Shown here: positions 10,530 through 64,000 of the stretch, one piece after another
How positions within the stretch are numbered: position 1 is the first letter of the stretch
Layout: each line of letters starts with the position of its first letter
NCBI GenBank assembly: GCA_036503335.1
Contig: DASXXC010000248.1
Coordinates: 11,748-75,747 of the forward strand
From: Thermoanaerobaculia bacterium
GTDB lineage: Bacteria > Acidobacteriota > Thermoanaerobaculia > Multivoradales > UBA5704
Direction of reading: 5' to 3'
Length of the DNA: 64,000 nt
The notes under the pieces: generated by a model
The model's database searches: none
Told to the model about the DNA's origin: nothing
What the model saw: only the letters and a program-made list of their open reading frames with translations
Position numbers and translations under genes: made by a program

Positions 10530-13500
10530 TCAGCGCACGGTGACCATCATCACCGTGCTGTAGGACGCCTGTCCGAAGGCGTCGACCGCCTTGACCCGGA
10601 AGTAGTACTTGACCCCCTTGGTCAGGCCCGTGATCTTGGCCGTGGTGGTGTTCGCCGGCAGGGTCGCCGCCGTCGCGAAGGTGCTGTTGTTGGTCGACTT
10701 CTCGACCACGAACTGCACCTCGGTCGAGGAGTTGTCCCGCCACTTGACCTGCACCGCGCCGCCGCCGATCCCGGTGGCCGAGGTGATCTGCGGGGCGGTG
10801 GGGGGAGGCGTCCCCGGCGTGCTGGTGCCGGTGGCCACGTTGCTGTAGGCGGAGTAGCCGGACGAATTTTCGGCCCGCACCCGGAAGGAGTAGCTGGCGC
10901 CGGCGGTGAGGCCGGTGATCTGGGCCGTGGTGACGTTCGCGCCGACCGCGTAGACCTCCTTGTAGACGCCGCCGATCAGCTCCTCGATGCGGAACGAGGA
11001 CTCGTTGCTCGAGTTGTCGGTCCAGGTGAGCTGGATCGTGCCGGCCACGCTCCCCCCCCTGGCGGTGAGGCCCGTCGGGGCGGCCGGCACCGGGGACGGC
11101 GGCGGAGTGGCGCTCTGCGTGGTGGCGCTGGCGACGTTGCTGTAGGCCGAGAAGCCGACGGCGTTGGCCGCCGCCACCCGGAAGCTGTAGGTGGTCCCGG
11201 CCGCCAGGCCGCCGATCTGGGTGCTCGTCACGCTGGGACCGAGGACCTGGATCTCCTGATAGGCGCCGTTCACGAGCTGCTGTACGTGGAAGGAGCCCAC
11301 GTTGGTCGAGCTCTCCTGCCAGGTGAGATTGATGGCGCTGGTCGAGGCGGCCTGCGCCGTCAGGGCGGTGGGAGCGGCCGGCGGGGTCGGGATGGCCGGC
11401 GTGGTGGCGGCGGCGACGTTGCTGTAGGCCGAGTAGCCGCCGGTGTTCGCCGCCCGCACCCGGAAGCTGTAGGAGGTCGAGGCCGCCAGGCCGGTGATCT
11501 GGACCGCGGTCGTGCCGGCGGTCAGGCTCTTGATCTCCTGGTAGGAGCCGTTCACGAGCTGCTCCACCCGGAAGGAGTCCTCGTTGGTCGAATTGTCCTG
11601 CCAGGAGAGATTGATCGCGGAGCTCGACGCGGCCTGGGCCGCGAGGGCGCCCGGCGCGTTGGGAGCGCTGGGGACCGGCGGCGGCGGAGCGCCGGCGCCG
11701 TTGGTGAGCAGGGCCACGGCCGGGTGGATGCGGGTCAGGTCCTGCCCCATCAGCTTGCCGAGCGGCACGTTCTCCTTGGCCGCGTCGCCGAGCATGTAGA
11801 TCGTCAGCTTGCGGCCGAAGTCGACCAGCGAGGCGTCGCCGTCCTGCTGGCCGGCGCGGATCAGCACCTCGGCGGCGCCGGTCTTCTCGGGGTCGTAGAG
11901 CTCGCGGTCCGACTCCGCCACGGGGCCCGCCAGCGTGCCGCCCAGGCGGGGGCCCGACCAGGTGTACTGGAGGAGCCGCGCCCAGAGGCCGGAGACCGTG
12001 CCGTCGCCGTAGACCACGGCGTCGAAGTCCTTGTAGGTGTGGGCGATCGACGAGATCACCTGGCTCGGCTTCAGGGCCGGGATGCCGAGCGCGGCGTCGC
12101 CGCTGTCCCGCTGATAGCGGTTCAGGTAGTGCATGTCGTACATGCCGATCGTCCACTGCGAATCGGTGAGGGCAGTCATGCCGGTGGTGCTGGAGGGCAT
12201 CAGGTCGGGGCCGCCCCAGAAGCCGTAGGTGACGCCGTTCTGGACCGGCGCCGCGTAGAGCTGGGTGATCATCCGCGCGAAGTTCAGCCGGAAGTCGTCG
12301 AGGAAGCTGGCGTCGTCGCTGGCCAGGCCCATGAAGCGGAAGATGTACTGCCACTGCTCGCCCACGCGGCCGGTGAGGGTGGCGTTCGGATCGTTGATCG
12401 GATAGTCCGCGGCGCAGGCCGGGCCGTCGGGGCCGTGCGGCGTCACCACCGGATTGGGGCCGCGCTGCGGGCACTCCCAGCGGCGCATGCTGTCGGCGCC
12501 CCGCTGGACGATGTCGATCACCGTCTGGTCGCCGGTCAGCCAGTAGTAGAGGATGAGGTTCTCGAAATAGGCGTGCGAGCTGTTGAAGTCGGTGCGGTAG
12601 GCGCCGTAGCCGGTCGGGGACTGGCCGCAGTAGAACCAGGCCGTGGCCGGGCCGCACTGCATGATCTGGGTGTGCAGGGTGCGCAGGGCGCCCGGGAAGG
12701 CGATCTCGTCGAGCCACTCGACGTCGCCGGTCCGCATCGCCCAGACCTGGGCCGTGCTGGTCGTGTTGTGGTAATCCGTGAAGGCGCTGCACCAGAAGGT
12801 GTCGTCCCAGTGCTCGGTGGGCGTGGGATCGGCGCCGGCGCCGCAGTCCACCTCGCCGTCATAGCCGGCCTCCCCCCAGTAGCGGGGGTAGACGCCGAAG
12901 GTCATCAGGCCGTTGAGGCCGATCGAGTCGACCTTGCTCACCGTGCGGTTGAGCACGTCCGGGACCACGGTGTCATAGGAGGCGAGGTCCGAGGGGAGCG
13001 GGCCCACCGGGAAGTCGTCGACCGCGTCCGAGGAGGCGAGCCACTGCGGCTCCGGCCAGGCCCGGAGCGGCCGGTTGAGCGGCGCCCAGGTGGTGCGATT
13101 CAGGGCGTCGCGGGAGGGGGCGCCCGAGGAGGCCGTCACCGCCAGGGTGGCGAAGAGGCCCTGGTGGTTGGCCAGCCAGGCCTTGTCGTCCACCAGGTCG
13201 ATCGCCAGATGGCCGGTGGCGAGCATCCGCAGGGCCTGCGGCTCATAGCGGTGCATGTGGTTGAGGGCGATCGCCACCGTGCCGGCCGGGCCGCTGGCGG
13301 CGAGCAGGCCGCCGTCCGCCTTGGCGCCGGTGGCCGTGGCGCCCGCCACGTTGAGGTCGAAGACCTGCGGCGCGGTGCGGTTGGCCCGGAGCTGCTGGCG
13401 CACCCAGGCGCTCTGGCCGGCGCCGACCGCGCCGGAGACCGCCGGGGCCGAGAAACCGCCCACGGTGGTGACGGTGGGGGTGCCGCCCAGCGAGACCTGC

Positions 13501-14354: not shown

Positions 14355-15004
14355 CGACAGCTCCTTGAAACGGTCCACCACCTGCACATCCACCCGGGTT
14401 GAGATGAAGATCCCCTGTGCGCGGAAAAGTGGACTCATCCACGCGGCGGGGGTGACGAACCGGCCAAGCGGGCGGTTCCGTCGGCGACTCGTTGGAACGG
14501 TGAGCGGTCAGCTCACCCTGATTTATGCAGAGGACGCTATACGGTGCAAGAAAGTAAAGTCAACGTTTTCCGATAGAGAAATTTGTTCAACATACCTTAT
14601 CGGACAACGATTTCCGGAATAAGGACCGTCTGAGAGGCGATTTGTCAAAATTACGCGTACCGGCAGGTCGAAGTCGAGGTTTTATGGGCTGGAGGCATCC
14701 GGGGGTGCTCAGTATCTGAGCACTCGCCGTACCGCCGGTGAGCGGGGATCAACCCGGTTCTTTTTGCAAAAGCGGCGGCCCGGGACGATAGTCTCTTGGT
14801 AATGTCTACTCTGGAGATGCTGGCTGGAAGGGAAAGCGCGCCGCGCCGGCGGACCCCGGTCTCGCCCACGCCTGGATCGAGCGCCAGGGGATTCCGGTGG
14901 GAGAGGCCCGCGACGTGGAGGAGCGCTTCGCGCCGCTCGGGCCGGCACAGGGATGCCGTGAGCAGAGCGCCGGAGCGCGCGGATTCAGGGGGAAGCATCG
15001 CCTT

Positions 15005-15300
15005 ATATAGGGAGCCCCCTCGTACTATATGGACGAGGGGTCTCCCCAAAAAGACGAGGAGTCTCCCAAAAAAGACGACCCCTCTCCCCAAAAAGACGGA
15101 GGCTCGTCCATATAGTACGAGGGGGCTCCCTATATGAACCTGGGGTCTCCCCAAAAAGACGACCCCTCTCCCTAAAAAGACGGAGGCTCGTCCATATGGT
15201 ACGAGGGGTCTCCCTATATGAGCCTGGGGTCTCCCCGAAAGGCGAGGCCTCCTCCAAAAAAGACGGGGAGCTCCCCTGAGAGGACGGGCCCTCTCCCGAA
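15005..15300. repeat. composite intergenic repeat array (33-bp perfect inverted repeat; 84-bp tandem units; phased A-tracts)
   Basis: 15005-15037 is the exact reverse complement of 15103-15135. The block starting at 15061 repeats at 15145 and, decayed, at 15229. A5-6 tracts lie at 15048, 15068, 15090, 15153, 15174 and 15256. Confidence 0.85.
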
Positions 15301-47088: not shown

Positions 47089-47390
47089 GGATGAGCCTTC
47101 GCGAAGGAAGATGGGCTCTCGGGAACGAAGATGACGGCCCGGATGGCTTCCCGAACGGCCATCTTGCGAAGATGGCGCTCCGGATAGCTTCCCGGGCGGC
47201 CATCTTACGAAGATAGCGATTTTTTTTCGCAGGATGACGCTCCGGGAAGAAAGATGGCCGCCCGGGAAAGCTCAAAACCGTCCGGGAAGCCAAAAAACGG
47301 GAAATCCAACGAAAAATCCGGTTATCCAGGGCTCGAAATCCGTCCGGACGGCGAAAACGGCGCCATCCTGAGAAAAACGGCGTCCGGGAG
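47089..47390. repeat. intergenic array: 41-bp imperfect-palindrome tandem units plus phased A-tracts
   Basis: Units at 47127-47167 and 47168-47208 have GAAGATGG/CCATCTT arms. Related words occur at 47089, 47107, 47209, 47231 and 47250. T8 at 47220-47227. A-tracts at 47274, 47292, 47312, 47336, 47354 and 47373. Confidence 0.75.
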
Positions 47391-47395
47391 CCCTT

Positions 47396-48367
47396 TCAGC
47401 CCGCCGGGATTCTCCAGCGCTCGCCCACGGCCATCGTGAGGACCCGGGAACGGTCGGCGCCGGTCCGGTCCAGGATCTCGGCCAGGACCTTGGGCGCGAG
47501 ATCGACGGGCTCGTCCGTGAGGTCGAAGCACCCCCAGTGCATGGGGATCATGGTCCGCGCGCCGAGGTCGAGGAAGGCGCGGTAGGCCTCCCCGGGGTCG
47601 GCGTGCTGGGGTCGCATGAACCAGCGGGGCTCGTAGGCGCCGATGGGCAGGAAGGCGACGTCGATCGGCCCCAGCCGCCGGCCGATCTCGGCGAAGCCGT
47701 GATAGTAGCCCGAGTCCCCGGCGAAGTAGTAGCGGCGGCTCCCGGAGTCGAGCAGCCAGGAGCACCAGAGGGTGGAGTTGCGGGCCATGCCGAAGCGGTT
47801 CGACCAGTGCTGGGCGGGCAGGCAGGTGAGGGTCCACCGCCCGTGGCGGACGCTCTGCCACCAGTCGAGCTCCACAGCTTGGCGCCCGCGCTTCCGGAGC
47901 CACCCGGCGAGCCCCAGGGGGGCAAACCACCGGATCGAGGCCGGCAGCCGGCGCACGCTCCAGTCGTCCAGATGGTCGTAGTGGTTGTGGGAGAGGACGG
48001 CGAAGGCCTCGGCCGGCACCGCCTCCAGGGGGATGCCCGGCGGGCTCTTCCGCTTGGGGAGCAGCGCCCGCGCCCCGAAGTGGGGGTCGGTGAGAAAGAC
48101 CTCCCCGCCGTCCTGGACCGCGAACGTCGAATGCCCCACCCAGGTCACCGAGTCCGGCTGCCCCCCGTCCCTCAGATAGGCGCCGTCGTTGGCCAACACC
48201 GGGATCTGCGGCGGGACGCTCTTGTCATATCCCTTGTCCTTGGAGAATTGCCACCGGAGCAGGTCGAGAAACCGGGTGTTGAACGGAGCCCAGGGATTGA
48301 AGAACCGCCCCGGCTCGCCGTGGGGGGCGTAGAGGAGGTCGGTCTGGGGGTCGGAGTCTGCGGCCAT
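47396..48367 (-). CDS. MBL-fold metallo-hydrolase (NAPE-PLD-like)
   Basis: HxHxDH motif (SHNHYDHLD), later FAGDSGY, and PMHWG. Confidence 0.85.
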   Translation of the reverse strand: MAADSDPQTDLLYAPHGEPGRFFNPWAPFNTRFLDLLRWQFSKDKGYDKSVPPQIPVLANDGAYLRDGGQPDSVTWVGHSTFAVQDGGEVFLTDPHFGARALLPKRKSPPGIPLEAVPAEAFAVLSHNHYDHLDDWSVRRLPASIRWFAPLGLAGWLRKRGRQAVELDWWQSVRHGRWTLTCLPAQHWSNRFGMARNSTLWCSWLLDSGSRRYYFAGDSGYYHGFAEIGRRLGPIDVAFLPIGAYEPRWFMRPQHADPGEAYRAFLDLGARTMIPMHWGCFDLTDEPVDLAPKVLAEILDRTGADRSRVLTMAVGERWRIPAG

Positions 48368-48456
48368 GGCGGGCTTCAGAGGATATCCCGTCGGGCCCGA
48401 TCGTGCCTCTTGCGCCGCTCGTCGTTCCTTGTGAGAATGCCGCGTTCTTTCCTGGC

Positions 48457-49431
48457 ATGTCGAACGGAGGGGTGGTGGCGGAGCACGATTCCGGATACAA
48501 GCTTCTTTTCTCCCATCCCGAGATGGTCGAGGACCTGATCCGCGGCTTCGTCCATGAGGACTGGGTGCGAGACCTCGACTTCTCCACCTTGGAGAAGGTC
48601 CCTGGCAACTACGTCGCTCCCAATCTGATGCCCCGGGAGAGCGACTGCGTCTGGAAGCTCGGCTGGAAGGATGGCCGCGTCCTCTACGTCTATCTCCTGA
48701 TGGAATTCCAATCCACCGTCGACTCCTCGATGGCGCTACGCATGATGGTCTACCTGGGGCTGTTCTACCAGGACCTTCTCAAGCGGGGAGAGACCACCCC
48801 TTCGGGCAAGCTGCCACCCGTCCTGCCGCTGGTTCTCTATAATGGATACGCGCTCTGGAACGCCGCCCGGGAGGTCTCGGAGCTGATCGAGGAGGTCCCC
48901 GGCGGTCTGGAGCGCTACCGGCCGCAGCTCCGCTACTGTCTGCTGGACGAGATGCGGATGGCCGACTCGGAGCTGGAGCCGTTGCGCAATCTGGCCGCGG
49001 CGGTGTTCCGGCTGGAGAAGAGCTTCGATACGGAGGCCATGGAACGGGTCCTGGAAGCGGCGAGCGAGTGGTTACGGGCGCCGGGTCTGGAGGGATTGAG
49101 GAAGTCGTTCACCGATTGGGTGCTGAAGGTTCTTCTCCCGTCCCGGATCCGCGGGGTCAGGTTCCCCGAGTTACTCGATCTTGAGGAGGTCAAGGCGATG
49201 CTTGCGGAAAGCGGCTTTAGTTGGTCCGATCGCTGGGAGCGGGAAGGGATGGAAAAGGGGCTCCAGGAAGCTCGTGGAGCTCTCCTGCAGGATCTCGAGA
49301 GGCGCTTCGGTCCCCTGCCCGAGACGATCCTCCGGCGGGTGGACGCGTTTGCGTCCCTCGCGGAGCTCACGAAATTCAGCTTCCGCGCGGGAGCGGCCTC
49401 CTCTTTGGCTGAGCTCGCCACCATCCCGTAG
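48457..49431 (+). CDS. Rpn-family recombination-promoting nuclease / putative transposase (PD-(D/E)xK, YhgA-like) with DUF4351 tail
   Basis: Start at ATG 48457. EHDSGYKLLFSHPEMVEDLIRGF, a DxxW.. core (ESDCVWKL..YVYLLMEFQS), and C-terminal DUF4351-like LLQDLERRFGPLPETILRRVDAF. GC is slightly lower than the flanks. Confidence 0.85.
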   Translation: MSNGGVVAEHDSGYKLLFSHPEMVEDLIRGFVHEDWVRDLDFSTLEKVPGNYVAPNLMPRESDCVWKLGWKDGRVLYVYLLMEFQSTVDSSMALRMMVYLGLFYQDLLKRGETTPSGKLPPVLPLVLYNGYALWNAAREVSELIEEVPGGLERYRPQLRYCLLDEMRMADSELEPLRNLAAAVFRLEKSFDTEAMERVLEAASEWLRAPGLEGLRKSFTDWVLKVLLPSRIRGVRFPELLDLEEVKAMLAESGFSWSDRWEREGMEKGLQEARGALLQDLERRFGPLPETILRRVDAFASLAELTKFSFRAGAASSLAELATIP

Positions 49432-62548: not shown

Positions 62549-62797
62549 ATGAAGTCTGTCGCCCTCACAGAAGCCAAGACCCAACTCTCTTCACTGGTCG
62601 ACGAAGTCCGTGCCTCCGGAGAGCCGATCGAGATCCGCGAACGGGGGGAGCCTGCTGCCTATCTCGTGGAAGTGGAGACGTTCAAACGTCTCAGGGAAAT
62701 TGAGGACAGTGTCCGGACCGAGCAGTTGCGCAGAGACCTCGAAGGCCCAAAATACGACCTGGAAAATGTCTTGGCGAAGCTCGGTCTTTATCCCTAG
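62549..62797 (+). CDS. type II antitoxin, Phd/YefM family
   Basis: MKSVALTEAKTQLSSLVDEV..GEPIEIRERGEPAAYLV..ETFKRL. RBS GAGGAGA. Local GC is lower. Confidence 0.85.
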   Translation: MKSVALTEAKTQLSSLVDEVRASGEPIEIRERGEPAAYLVEVETFKRLREIEDSVRTEQLRRDLEGPKYDLENVLAKLGLYP

Positions 62798-62804
62798 GGC
62801 CTCG

Positions 62805-62905
62805 GTGCTCAAGCTCGATGTTCCCGATGTTCCCGGAGGCCGCATCTGGGATCGCCCGGATTGGACTCTGGTCTATCAAGTCGACGATCAGGCTGAAACG
62901 GGTGG
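62805..62905 (+). pseudogene. decayed RelE/ParE-like toxin remnant (C-terminal half only, frameshifted)
   Basis: Frame 3 reads VLKLDVPDVPGGRIWDRPDWTLVYQVDDQAET, resembling the xYRxxYxVDDxxxxVxVxxIxHR end of RelE/ParE. The matching tail ..ETVDVSRIERLL* is found 517 bp downstream at 63411-63450. Confidence 0.3.
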
Positions 62906-62936
62906 ATGTCAGCAGAATCGAGAGGCGCCCATAATC
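62893..62936 (+). repeat. direct repeat copy A (decayed gene-junction copy)
   Basis: ctgaaacgggtggatgtcagcagaatcgagaggcgcccataatc is ~80% identical to 63410-63452, with one 1-nt indel. Confidence 0.7.
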
Positions 62937-63003
62937 CTGTCCCTTTCATGCCCTCAAAGAGGATGTGAGGCCCTCGGCAGAGCCGAAAGCCTCGTCCGTT
63001 CAG

Positions 63004-63412
63004 GGAGACTGTCCGTACCACTGGGGGAATGTTTCGTCCATACTGGGGGAATCTCTCCCCGACGGGGACCATGGTCCGGCGGAGAGGGGGGCGTCTCCCC
63101 CTTTCCGGGGAACCATTCCTGGAACGGGGAGAACGTTCCGGACGCCGGGGGGAATGTTCCAACCCAGCGGGGGAATGTTCCATCGGTTTTGGGGAATGTT
63201 CCAACCTTTGGGGTGGAACATCCGTCCGAATGGGGGAATGTTCCGTCGGCTCGGATGGAACATCCGTCGTTTTGGGGAATGTTCCGTCCCTCCGGATGGA
63301 ACATTCGTCCGATTGGGGGGAACGTTCCCCCCACAGGTCGGAACGTTCCCCCCACAGGTCGGAACGTTCCCCTTTTTGGGGGAACGGTTCCCCTCCGGCG
63401 ACGGAACATCTG
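63004..63412. repeat. ~20-unit tandem array, 21-bp period, GGAAYRTTCC palindromic core
   Basis: Cores start at 63026, 63048, 63066, 63109, 63130, 63151, 63172, 63193, 63215, 63235, 63257, 63276, 63298, 63319, 63340, 63361, 63381 and 63403. Two perfect 21-mers lie at 63319-63360. Confidence 0.85.
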
Positions 63413-63452
63413 AGACAGTGGATGTGAGTAGAATCGAGAGGCTCCTATGATC
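63410..63452 (+). repeat. direct repeat copy B (functional gene junction)
   Basis: ctgagacagtggatgtgagtagaatcgagaggctcctatgatc contains GAGAGG, the ATG at 63447, and an overlapping TGA. Confidence 0.7.
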
Positions 63453-64000
63453 TCCTCCCCCTCCCGCCCTTTGGTGGGTCCCGATCCGGCCACCATCGCC
63501 GAGGCGCTCTCGAAGCGCATCCTCGGCCAGGACGAGGCCATCCGCGAGATGGCGGTCGCCCTCTCGAAGCAGCTCGCGGGCTTGAGGGTGGGCAACATCC
63601 TGATGATCGGCTCCTCCGGCACGGGCAAGACGACGCTGATGCGCGCCGTCGAGACCTACCTCGCCTCGGACCCGGTGCTCAAGGCCCGCTCGACGGTGAT
63701 CCGCATCCACGCCAACGTGCTCGGTGAGGAGGCGGAGCGCGGGAGGCCCGGGGAGGCCGTGCTCGGCCGGCTCCTGGAGCGGGCGCGCGAGCAGCTCGGC
63801 CCCAGCGTGCCGGTCGACATCCTGCTCCGGCGGGCCGCCTCGGGGATCGTATTCGTGGACGAGGTGGACAAGATCCGCTCACACGTAGGGGGCCAGCCCA
63901 ACGTCTCGGGCATCCGCGCCCAGGAGGCCCTGCTGACCCTGATCGAGAACGAGGCCGTCCCATTCGTCCTGCCGGAGTGGGCCGGCGGCGGGGTGGCGAC
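63447..64000 (+). CDS. AAA+ ATPase, ClpX/HslU-like (3' end outside window)
   Basis: Not in the ORF track because no stop occurs before the window edge. My translation is MISSPSRPLVGPDPATIAEALSKRILGQDEAIREMAVAL..NILMIGSSGTGKTTLMRAV (Walker A)..GIVFVDEVDKI (Walker B). It is open to position 64000. Confidence 0.85.
   Translation, partial: MISSPSRPLVGPDPATIAEALSKRILGQDEAIREMAVALSKQLAGLRVGNILMIGSSGTGKTTLMRAVETYLASDPVLKARSTVIRIHANVLGEEAERGRPGEAVLGRLLERAREQLGPSVPVDILLRRAASGIVFVDEVDKIRSHVGGQPNVSGIRAQEALLTLIENEAVPFVLPEWAGGGVA

Follow-up and report, generated by a model that had tools for sequence, protein, structure and literature searches.

A 21-bp-periodic palindromic repeat array between a toxin gene remnant and a ClpX-like ATPase gene in a Thermoanaerobaculia bacterium

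What does a tandem array of short palindromes do directly upstream of a gene for an AAA+ ATPase, and how did it come to be there? The question is raised by about 20 units of a 21-bp repeat at positions 63004-63412 of a 64,000-nucleotide stretch of DNA from a Thermoanaerobaculia bacterium of the Acidobacteriota (GenBank assembly GCA_036503335.1, contig DASXXC010000248.1, positions 11,748 to 75,747 of the forward strand). This stretch is referred to here as the window, and all positions are counted from its first nucleotide unless a locus label is given. The original prediction, made from the letters of the window, took the array for a set of iterons or transcription factor sites rather than a CRISPR locus or a gene. 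We tentatively favor a different reading, in which the array is an evolutionarily young, noncoding, palindrome-bearing minisatellite with no dedicated or conserved role in control of the ATPase gene.

The array and its host locus

Nine orthologous ATPase loci were compared with the window (L014, L015, L016, L010, L012, L013, L203, L206, and L207; such labels are our own), and none carries the array, which argues against a conserved regulatory device of the ATPase gene. Neither a toxin-antitoxin (TA) module nor an array is present in L015 and L016, where fabH abuts the ATPase gene, or in L014, where a small membrane open reading frame (ORF) abuts it with an ATGA overlap (state a); L010, L012, and L013 are also without the array. 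In L203, L206, and L207 (state b), the antitoxin, ATPase, and fabH genes share 88 to 94% nucleotide identity with the window, and the gene order is a Phd/YefM antitoxin gene, an intact gene for an 89-amino-acid (aa) RelE/ParE-like toxin, and the ATPase gene, whose start overlaps the stop of the toxin gene (ATGA). Alignment of the window (state c) with state b (alignment A1) revealed a 126-bp deletion at the junction 62796/62797 that removes the N-terminal half of the toxin gene, a 9-bp duplication (CGATGTTCC twice, at 62816-62833), an extra G at ~62900 that causes a +1 frameshift, and a 516-bp insertion. The chromosomal synteny, running from folE, GWxTD, and fabH on to the ATPase gene, is common to the window and its relatives. 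Judging from these alignments, the ancestral locus evidently comprised antitoxin, toxin, and ATPase genes in which the ATPase start overlapped the stop of the toxin gene, the toxin gene is evidently decaying in the sub-lineage of the window, and the array is apparently a lineage-specific addition inside the decaying TA module. We infer that it broke a translationally coupled toxin-ATPase junction.

The inserted segment is bracketed by two 53-nt copies of the ancestral toxin-end/ATPase-start junction, which are 77% identical, lie 516 bp apart, and enclose 463 bp of array (repeat family D4). Junction copy 1 has kept the ancestral toxin end: its first 33 nt equal those of the relatives, its ATG has become ATA, and its distal part has decayed. 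Junction copy 2 has kept the ancestral ATPase start and carries four substitutions relative to the relatives in its toxin-derived part, one of which turns CAGAAT into a −10-like TAGAAT (63427-63432); GGAACA at 63403-63408 sits 18 bp 5' of this hexamer. In copy 1, a promoter scan returned a sigma-70-like match, ATGTCA-N18-CATAAT, at 62906-62935. TA-AAT-like hexamers 8 to 12 nt 5' of the ATPase start are also found in array-less relatives. The idea that the segment arose when 516 bp of the ATPase 5' region were duplicated in tandem and then decayed was rejected, as the interior of the insertion scored 22 against the ATPase gene and the shuffle mean was 22.

The predicted layout of the array was borne out. 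A core of the type GGA(A)-N4-6-(T)TCC is present at all 19 positions originally listed, and an extra unit, GGGGGCGTCTCCCCC at ~63087, closes the sole 43-bp gap between them. With this unit counted, the mean spacing is 21.0 bp (399 bp over 19 intervals; range, 19 to 23 bp), in keeping with the proposed phasing at two helical turns. At lags 21 and 42, self-identity of 63004-63412 was 0.523 and 0.556, respectively, whereas 1000 dinucleotide-preserving shuffles of the array gave 0.261 ± 0.024 and reached at most 0.358 for lag 21 and 0.365 over all lags. Tandem Repeats Finder (TRF) assigned period 21 to 63148-63244 and period 41, in 3.3 copies, to 63191-63328, and it also reported a perfect repeat of GGAACGTTCCCCCCACAGGTC. 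The window holds eight exact GGAAYRTTCC sites, all within the array. When aligned on their dyads, the units have in common tGGGG(G)AAYGTTCC, followed by 7 unconstrained bases. GC content is 61% in the array and 70% in the window, and the names of homologues agree with an origin in Thermoanaerobaculia, Acidobacteriota.

The array is composed of distinguishable blocks (Table 1), and the expected substructure of three direct units, three alternating units of ~42 bp, and perfect 21-mers was recovered, as was an end of the array 35 bp 5' of the ATPase start codon. The seven units at the left carry differing short palindromes (GGAGACTGTCC, GGAATGTTTC, GGGGGAATCTCTCCCC, GGACCATGGTCC, GGGGGCGTCTCCCCC, GGAACCATTCC, and AGAACGTTCC). 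Inversion of some units generates the 42-bp super-units, and these can form hairpins as predicted: each inverted pair allows 13 base pairs with one bulge and one G-T/G-U pair. Single cores are palindromes of 10 to 16 bp with a 2-nt center, and real hairpins arise only from the inverted pairs. Homologous arrays of other metagenomes start within the weakly repetitive part to the left of the first unit. Up to 63348, Logan short-read contigs of numerous samples agree with the window base for base, and all of them end there, inside the perfect 21-mers; the array is therefore no assembly artifact, and the copy number of the perfect 21-mers comes from the assembly alone.

Copy-number differences were sought by comparison with related arrays, as for variable-number tandem repeats (VNTRs). 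Metagenome ORFs P0286 to P0288 proved collinear with the array, sharing its first units (PY..GNVSS) and its last units (GTFPF.GERFPSGDGT), with gaps of 7 or 14 aa; as compared through these translations, the gaps amount to 21 or 42 nt, or one or two whole units. The tblastn alignments of P0287, P0289, and P0290 run on for 120 to 180 nt into the ATPase 5' region, and these sequences therefore probably represent the same locus in sister lineages. No copy-number variation was seen in short-read contigs among samples of the same strain. The array thus displays the head-to-tail units of 10 to 100 bp and the whole-unit differences between related genomes by which minisatellites and VNTRs are recognized.

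We propose that a seed of about 21 bp (the G-run, AAYGTTCC, and a 7-nt spacer) at the duplicated gene junction may have multiplied through slippage during replication or through unequal recombination, probably aided by hairpin formation. Occasional inversions of units would have given rise to the 42-bp higher-order repeats, and the latest round of amplification would be seen in the perfect 21-mers, which lie toward the ATPase-proximal (3') end. The 9-bp duplication in the toxin remnant marks the surroundings as slippage prone. Conservation of the core could reflect intra-array homogenization, quasi-palindrome correction, or some further constraint. As local effects, the ATPase gene would have lost its translational coupling with the TA operon, single substitutions may have created −10-like hexamers in both junction copies (CATAAT in copy 1 and TAGAAT in copy 2), and an extremely stable fold-back hairpin or cruciform could block read-through. 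Read in this manner, the result at the level of the locus is mostly corrective, in that the array would be a recent by-product of TA module decay and not an ancient regulatory device of an AAA+ protein, and the locus would offer a clean example of the birth of a minisatellite at a gene junction, with uncoupling of an operon.

Related arrays in the window and in other genomes

Two further arrays with a period of about 21 bp lie in the window (arrays A and B, Table 1). Array A consists of 21-bp units with an 84-bp super-period; its palindromes are GGGGTCTCCCC and GGAGCCCCCTC, and its spacers, A5 or TATATA, are phased. It behaves like the main array, being missing in relatives: in three relatives with 93 to 95% identical GroES, the upstream gene runs straight into the groES promoter. 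Because array A is missing in such close relatives, arrays of this kind appear to come and go quickly. One of these relatives, L200, has a different insert at this site: a near-perfect palindrome of ~150 bp centered on GGGGAATCCCC (2735-2880) occupies exactly the position of array A. Array B is weaker, with inverted AAGATGGCC...GGCCATCTT units followed by A-tracts approximately every 21 bp; a nearby Rpn/YhgA-like (Transposase_31) gene at 48403-49431 is the only transposase-like gene of the window. The three arrays stand 5' of groESL, an SprT-like gene, and the ClpX-like gene, and the idea that such arrays mark proteostasis genes was entertained and rejected as coincidence; the flanks of 14 acidobacterial and 10 other arrays consist of unrelated housekeeping genes.

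One genome per species was scanned for three GGAAYRTTCC cores separated by gaps of 9 to 13 bp (periods of 19 to 23 bp). The scan returned 57 loci, with a rough chance estimate of ~0.002 hits, in Acidobacteriota (14 loci), Bacteroidota, Spirochaetota, Planctomycetota, Verrucomicrobiota, Cyanobacteriota, and Bacillota; the loci with periods other than 21 bp are mostly three-site cases in Actinomycetota. The arrays are strongly concentrated in Acidobacteriota and in one project of metagenome-assembled genomes (MAGs). The latter (JAIR-JAIT, k119 contigs), presumably from termite gut, supplies 27 of the 57 loci, from Bacteroidota, Spirochaetota, and Planctomycetota, with differing spacers and the same core and period.

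The arrays are intergenic and take every orientation relative to neighboring genes, which are ordinary ones such as dapF, metK, ahpC, dnaE, atpB, and lptF. A shared neighbor gene was sought by comparing the ORFs up to 3 kb from each of the 57 arrays in an all-versus-all blastp and rejected, since the only clusters were spurious array ORFs. Within Acidobacteriota, there are extended unit families that are found, invariably in array form, at two loci per genome and are shared by several genomes: cTCAGGAAYRTTCCTCTGGAcc in L033/L057, L042/L045, L048, and L052, and ggGGAAYGTTCC(a/g)(g/t)c in the window, L030, L034/L066, L039, and L069. The array of the window belongs to a large population, apparently not described before, of GGAAnnTTCC arrays with a period of exactly 21 bp in unrelated intergenic spacers. 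The cross-phylum 21-bp regularity, to which no gene is linked, is not described in the literature searched. Full-text searches with core sequences and for 21-bp bacterial repeats yielded nothing relevant; the core has no match in that literature, in keeping with the earlier failure to match it to an operator.

As a control, metagenomes were scanned for four GGWWNNWWCC sites at a fixed 21-bp period, which gave at least 120 loci. Among the matches listed, to which the following counts apply, all 16 arm classes and all center dinucleotides are represented, and GGAAYRTTCC accounts for ~4 of 120. In view of this diversity of arms and centers, the 57 loci are no proof of one universal GGAAYRTTCC reader; the candidate that had been drawn from them, a universal GGAAYRTTCC-binding factor, is weakened and not killed. 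Units were nonpalindromic in 81 of 120 cases, of which 57 sit in ORFs reaching well past the array; these are likely coding heptads and a separate population. Cyclic palindromes made up 20 of 120 units, versus 1.2% expected from shuffled units.

The motif was also observed, at this spacing, in viral sequences (IMG/VR; L074 to L078). In all five viral matches, three to four copies of GGAACGTTCC lie 20 to 22 bp apart inside small-terminase genes, just after the part coding for the helix-turn-helix (for example, L076 446-499 and L074 10989-11042); three of these small terminases were scanned against PHROGs and correspond to phrog_1889 / 2606. The copies fall in different reading frames, pointing to a DNA-level motif, and they likely constitute a pac or TerS-binding site.

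Several of these results weigh against the minisatellite reading. Within the array itself, only the G-run and AAYGTTCC columns are conserved and the 7 spacer columns vary; in the collinear metagenome arrays, cores are likewise kept much better than spacers. The period is exactly 21 bp in ~47 of the 57 loci although 19 to 23 bp was allowed, some of them with 10 to 16 perfect cores, and the units represent 44 distinct consensus sequences in at least seven phyla. Other tandem arrays at the same loci have a broad spectrum of periods in which 21 is not dominant. Among the control matches listed, GGAA..TTCC arms occur in 13 of the 20 cyclic-palindromic 21-bp arrays. Over the 44 unit types, complementarity exceeded the null at offsets of ±6 (0.59 versus 0.29), ±9 (0.45 versus 0.25), and ±10 (0.41 versus 0.28), with no enrichment at ±7 and ±8; the units thus have a second dyad, centered on the spacer and involving adjacent bases, which indicates a symmetry of double-stranded DNA and not RNA pairing. 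Pure slippage does not predict a shared, exact 21-bp period. Together, the exact period, the conservation of core over spacer, and the double dyad hint at a constraint, be it a protein, DNA shape, or a dedicated mechanism.

Competing explanations

A phased protein-binding or DNA-shape element is the main rival to the minisatellite reading. As a binding platform, which we consider possible but doubtful, the core would bind a dimer of a DNA-binding or nucleoid-associated protein, and the two-turn spacing would align the dimers on one face of the helix; these might polymerize or wrap the DNA, by which the array could insulate, form a topological barrier, or regulate as an upstream array. The exact period, the recurrence of one core across the 44 unit types, the freedom of the spacer, the dyads at ±6 and at the spacer center, where adjacent bases cannot pair in an RNA hairpin, and the over-representation of GGAA..TTCC among the listed palindromic 21-bp arrays all speak for such a platform. 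The terminase genes described above, with sites at 20- to 22-bp spacing, would provide a precedent for a protein that reads this motif in this arrangement.

On the other hand, neither a candidate protein nor a linked gene was found among the neighbors of the 57 arrays, and the central dinucleotide is unconstrained in the wider GGAA..TTCC set. Arrays A and B, within the same 64 kb, share the ~21-bp period of the main array and have other cores, which argues against one specific operator-binding factor. Moreover, the array is missing in close relatives and is therefore dispensable. We regard as unlikely the broader proposal that exactly 21-bp GGAAnnTTCC-type arrays form an undescribed cross-phylum class of chromosomal elements, of which the array of the window would be a young member. 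Such elements might be kept as loaders of a phased filament of a dimeric protein or as curved or cruciform-prone structures, and could act as insulators of domains or of transcription, or as decoys that attract small-terminase-like phage proteins reading this motif at this spacing. Should a protein or DNA-shape constraint underlie the fixed two-turn period, the arrays would be a novel type of chromatin or insulator element in bacteria.

It is improbable that the array is a mobile or dispersible element, akin to repetitive extragenic palindromic (REP) sequences, bacterial interspersed mosaic elements (BIMEs), or miniature inverted-repeat transposable elements, that was copied pre-formed from elsewhere with duplication of a ~53-nt target. 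Direct target repeats do bracket the 516-bp insertion, extended unit families are shared by two loci per genome and by several genomes of other Acidobacteriota, and a relative bears a different long palindromic insert at the site of array A. However, target duplications are no general feature of 54 other arrays (most z < 3, a few higher), and to our knowledge the duplications made by known transposases are far shorter than 53 nt. The array lacks terminal inverted repeats, no solitary units occur within the window, and no Y1 transposase (REP-associated tyrosine transposase [RAYT]) was seen among the genes examined. The GTAG or CGTC head of tagged REPs (PMC3733652) is missing as well.

Little credence can be given to a structured RNA, whether a hairpin-rich leader of ~500 nt on the ATPase mRNA or a separate RNA, that would start from the promoter-like site in junction copy 1 and control stability or translation. 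The sigma-70-like match does point into the array, the array and the ATPase gene share their orientation, and the + strand folds more stably than the − strand (−251.3 kcal/mol, z −9.2, versus −215.5, z −7.6). The difference arises from G-U pairs, which stem from one unit type that was later copied three times, and a strong fold z-score is expected of any palindromic tandem repeat. The 2-nt palindrome centers cannot form a loop, the complementarity of adjacent bases at the spacer center is a feature of double-stranded DNA, and related arrays take every orientation relative to their neighbors. Rfam 15 at gathering thresholds gave no matches over the whole window, and a permissive search returned only generic long-hairpin matches of at most 35 bits versus thresholds of 55 to 137; a tRNA/tmRNA search found none.

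The iteron, operator, and coding readings are essentially excluded. Repeats of 17 to 22 bp phased at 21 to 22 bp are typical of plasmid and phage iterons, and the array has such repeats at ~21 to 22 bp and sits inside a TA module. That it is an iteron set or replication origin, as had been suggested, or an operator array of the neighboring TA module is nonetheless very improbable: a rep gene and an AT-rich unwinding region are both lacking, the housekeeping synteny is chromosomal and shared with relatives, and plasmid and phage records have no similarity to the array, which also lies 3' of the antitoxin gene rather than in its promoter and is missing where the TA module is intact. The array is not a CRISPR locus either, as was rightly claimed, because it has none of the unique spacers that, at a length similar to that of the repeats (23 to 50 bp), separate the repeats of such loci; the units are contiguous, the 7-nt "spacers" belong to the repeat, and no cas gene was seen near the array. 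Hardly credible is a heptad-repeat protein (21 bp being seven codons), in agreement with the earlier view that the array is not a gene: five frames are open across it and, among the control matches listed, most nonpalindromic 21-bp arrays sit inside long ORFs, but GC content at third codon positions (GC3) is 0.59 to 0.64 in all six array frames versus 0.81 to 0.97 in window genes, the long overlapping ORFs have no Pfam match, spacings of 19 to 23 bp shift the frame between units, none of the 14 acidobacterial arrays is covered by a GC3-supported ORF, and the sole database "homologues" (ten weak matches of one array ORF among 1.8 billion representative proteins) are, where inspected, ORFs across similar arrays.

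Known repeat systems and the surrounding features

The array works most like a VNTR, and its architecture resembles REP/BIME clusters. With bacterial minisatellites and VNTRs (for example, those of the mycobacterial interspersed repetitive unit [MIRU] type), it shares head-to-tail repeats of tens of base pairs between operon genes, copy differences in whole units, youth, dispensability, broken short-read assemblies, and no need for a dedicated function. Ordinary VNTRs differ in that the array has a conserved short palindrome, inverted units, and a core and 21-bp period that recur in unrelated genomes. REP elements are imperfect palindromes of 20 to 40 bp with the potential for a stem-loop, and one family has many dispersed copies in the extragenic DNA of a genome. 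REP/BIME clusters are similar in being short extragenic palindromes of alternating orientation, in lineage-specific families with several per genome and with larger fold-backs possible, but the array has no tagged head, its units were seen only in arrays with a strict 21-bp period, and no RAYT was seen. CGTC REP families have stems of 8 to 9 bp and loops of 4 to 5 nt (Di Nocera et al. 2013, PMC3733652), unlike the short palindromes of the array with their 2-nt centers.

Iterons are likewise direct repeats phased at about two helical turns, in which cores are conserved and spacers vary; they differ in having 3 to 7 units versus ~20 here, and the array has neither an initiator gene nor an AT-rich unwinding element, stands in a chromosomal housekeeping context, and shows no conservation with any replicon. 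Cooperative operator arrays of dimeric repressors include the MetJ met-boxes, the ParR/parC and omega-type centromeres, and the hipBA operators spaced 21 bp. They resemble the array in tandem sites, in dyads within and between sites, and in integral helical phasing that allows a protein filament on one face. Such operators, however, adjoin the gene of the binding protein and are conserved with it, whereas the array has no linked gene, is dispensable, and differs in its core from other arrays in the genome. In type III TA systems (ToxI type), repeats of ~34 to 45 nt stand directly before a ToxN/AbiQ-type toxin gene, and the ToxN-type endoribonuclease processes them. A tandem array directly 5' of a gene in a TA context is common to both, but the array of the window has a period of 21/42 bp and a ClpX-like ATPase gene downstream, and its TA module is of type II and decaying. 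In practical terms, arrays of this kind break short-read assemblies and create spurious ORFs in protein databases.

Table 1. Positions of the array blocks, the genes around them, and arrays A and B
Feature	Position	Strand	Basis or context
Phd/YefM-family antitoxin gene, 82 aa, intact	62549..62797	+	Pfam PF02604, E=2.9e-15; NCBIfam phd_fam, E=8.4e-11
RelE/ParE-like toxin gene remnant	62798..62934	+	Alignment A1 with intact 89-aa toxin of L203/L206/L207
Junction copy 1, duplicate of ancestral toxin-end/ATPase-start	62902..62954	+	Repeat family D4, alignment A1, promoter scan
Weakly repetitive left part of 516-bp insertion	62955..63003	.	Partial third copy GAGGATGTGAGG at 62959-62970; missing from L203/L206/L207
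Seven older diverged units	63004..63150	.	21-bp register, dyad scores, D1 family, 60-74% identity
Three head-to-tail units, GGGG(G)AATGTTCC + spacer	63151..63213	.	
41/42-bp higher-order unit, 3.3 copies, GGAATGTTCCGTC alternating with inverted GGATGGAACATCC	63186..63328	.	TRF period 41, D2 family, terminator-like hairpin listing
2.6 perfect GGAACGTTCCCCCCACAGGTC copies, putatively the most recent amplification	63319..63372	.	TRF, 100% match; short-read contigs stop here
Final two units, GGGGGAACGGTTCCCC and CGGAACATC	63373..63417	.	Collinear end GERFPSGDGT in P0287, P0288
Junction copy 2, working ATPase start, ATG 63447	63418..63470	+	Repeat family D4, alignment A1
ClpX-like AAA+ ATPase gene, 5' part, runs off window	63447..63998	+	Pfam AAA/AAA_2
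Array A	~14990-15300		Between Transglut_core3-like gene stop and groES promoter (TTGACA-N17-TACACT) + CIRCE element
Array B, weaker, periods 19-21 and 41	~47090-47400		Between metallo-beta-lactamase-fold gene and SprT-like gene

The genes at the locus were assigned by profile searches. The toxin peptide reconstructed from the remnant matched ParE_toxin at positions 55-85 (E=0.01), and the intact toxin of a relative matched the same family (E=8.6e-4), both with scores below the Pfam cut-off. The ATPase scored 134 bits against NCBIfam ClpX, for which the cut-off is 359, and has no zinc-finger N-domain; its length is 363 aa in relatives. Comparison with PADLOC gave no strong match.

Several further observations were made at or near the orthologous loci. 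In L206 (3001-4599), L203, and L207, the TA pair is coupled by ATGA to the ClpX-like ATPase gene and may form a three-gene toxin-antitoxin-unfoldase arrangement. The fabH-ATPase interval is hypervariable among relatives of ~92% identity, in which a TA module may be present or absent and a gene for a 269-aa protein, tetratricopeptide repeat (TPR) genes, or an array may occur. The ATPase gene of L010, L012, and L013 (from 6001) is split in two ORFs, for example of 229 and 159 aa; a frameshift error may underlie this split and hence the many "partial" homologues in databases. In L010, which is from a related genus, the spacer after fabH (2080-2330) contains four GGGGAACGCTTCCCC-type palindromes ~62 bp apart, one of which reaches a 13-bp stem, GTGACGTTGGGGA...TCCCCAACGTCAC. 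Elsewhere in the window, a 282-bp tandem repeat (11117-11649; 1.9 copies, 81% match) inside the gene for a 1302-aa fibronectin type III protein is an ordinary repeat of a coding domain.

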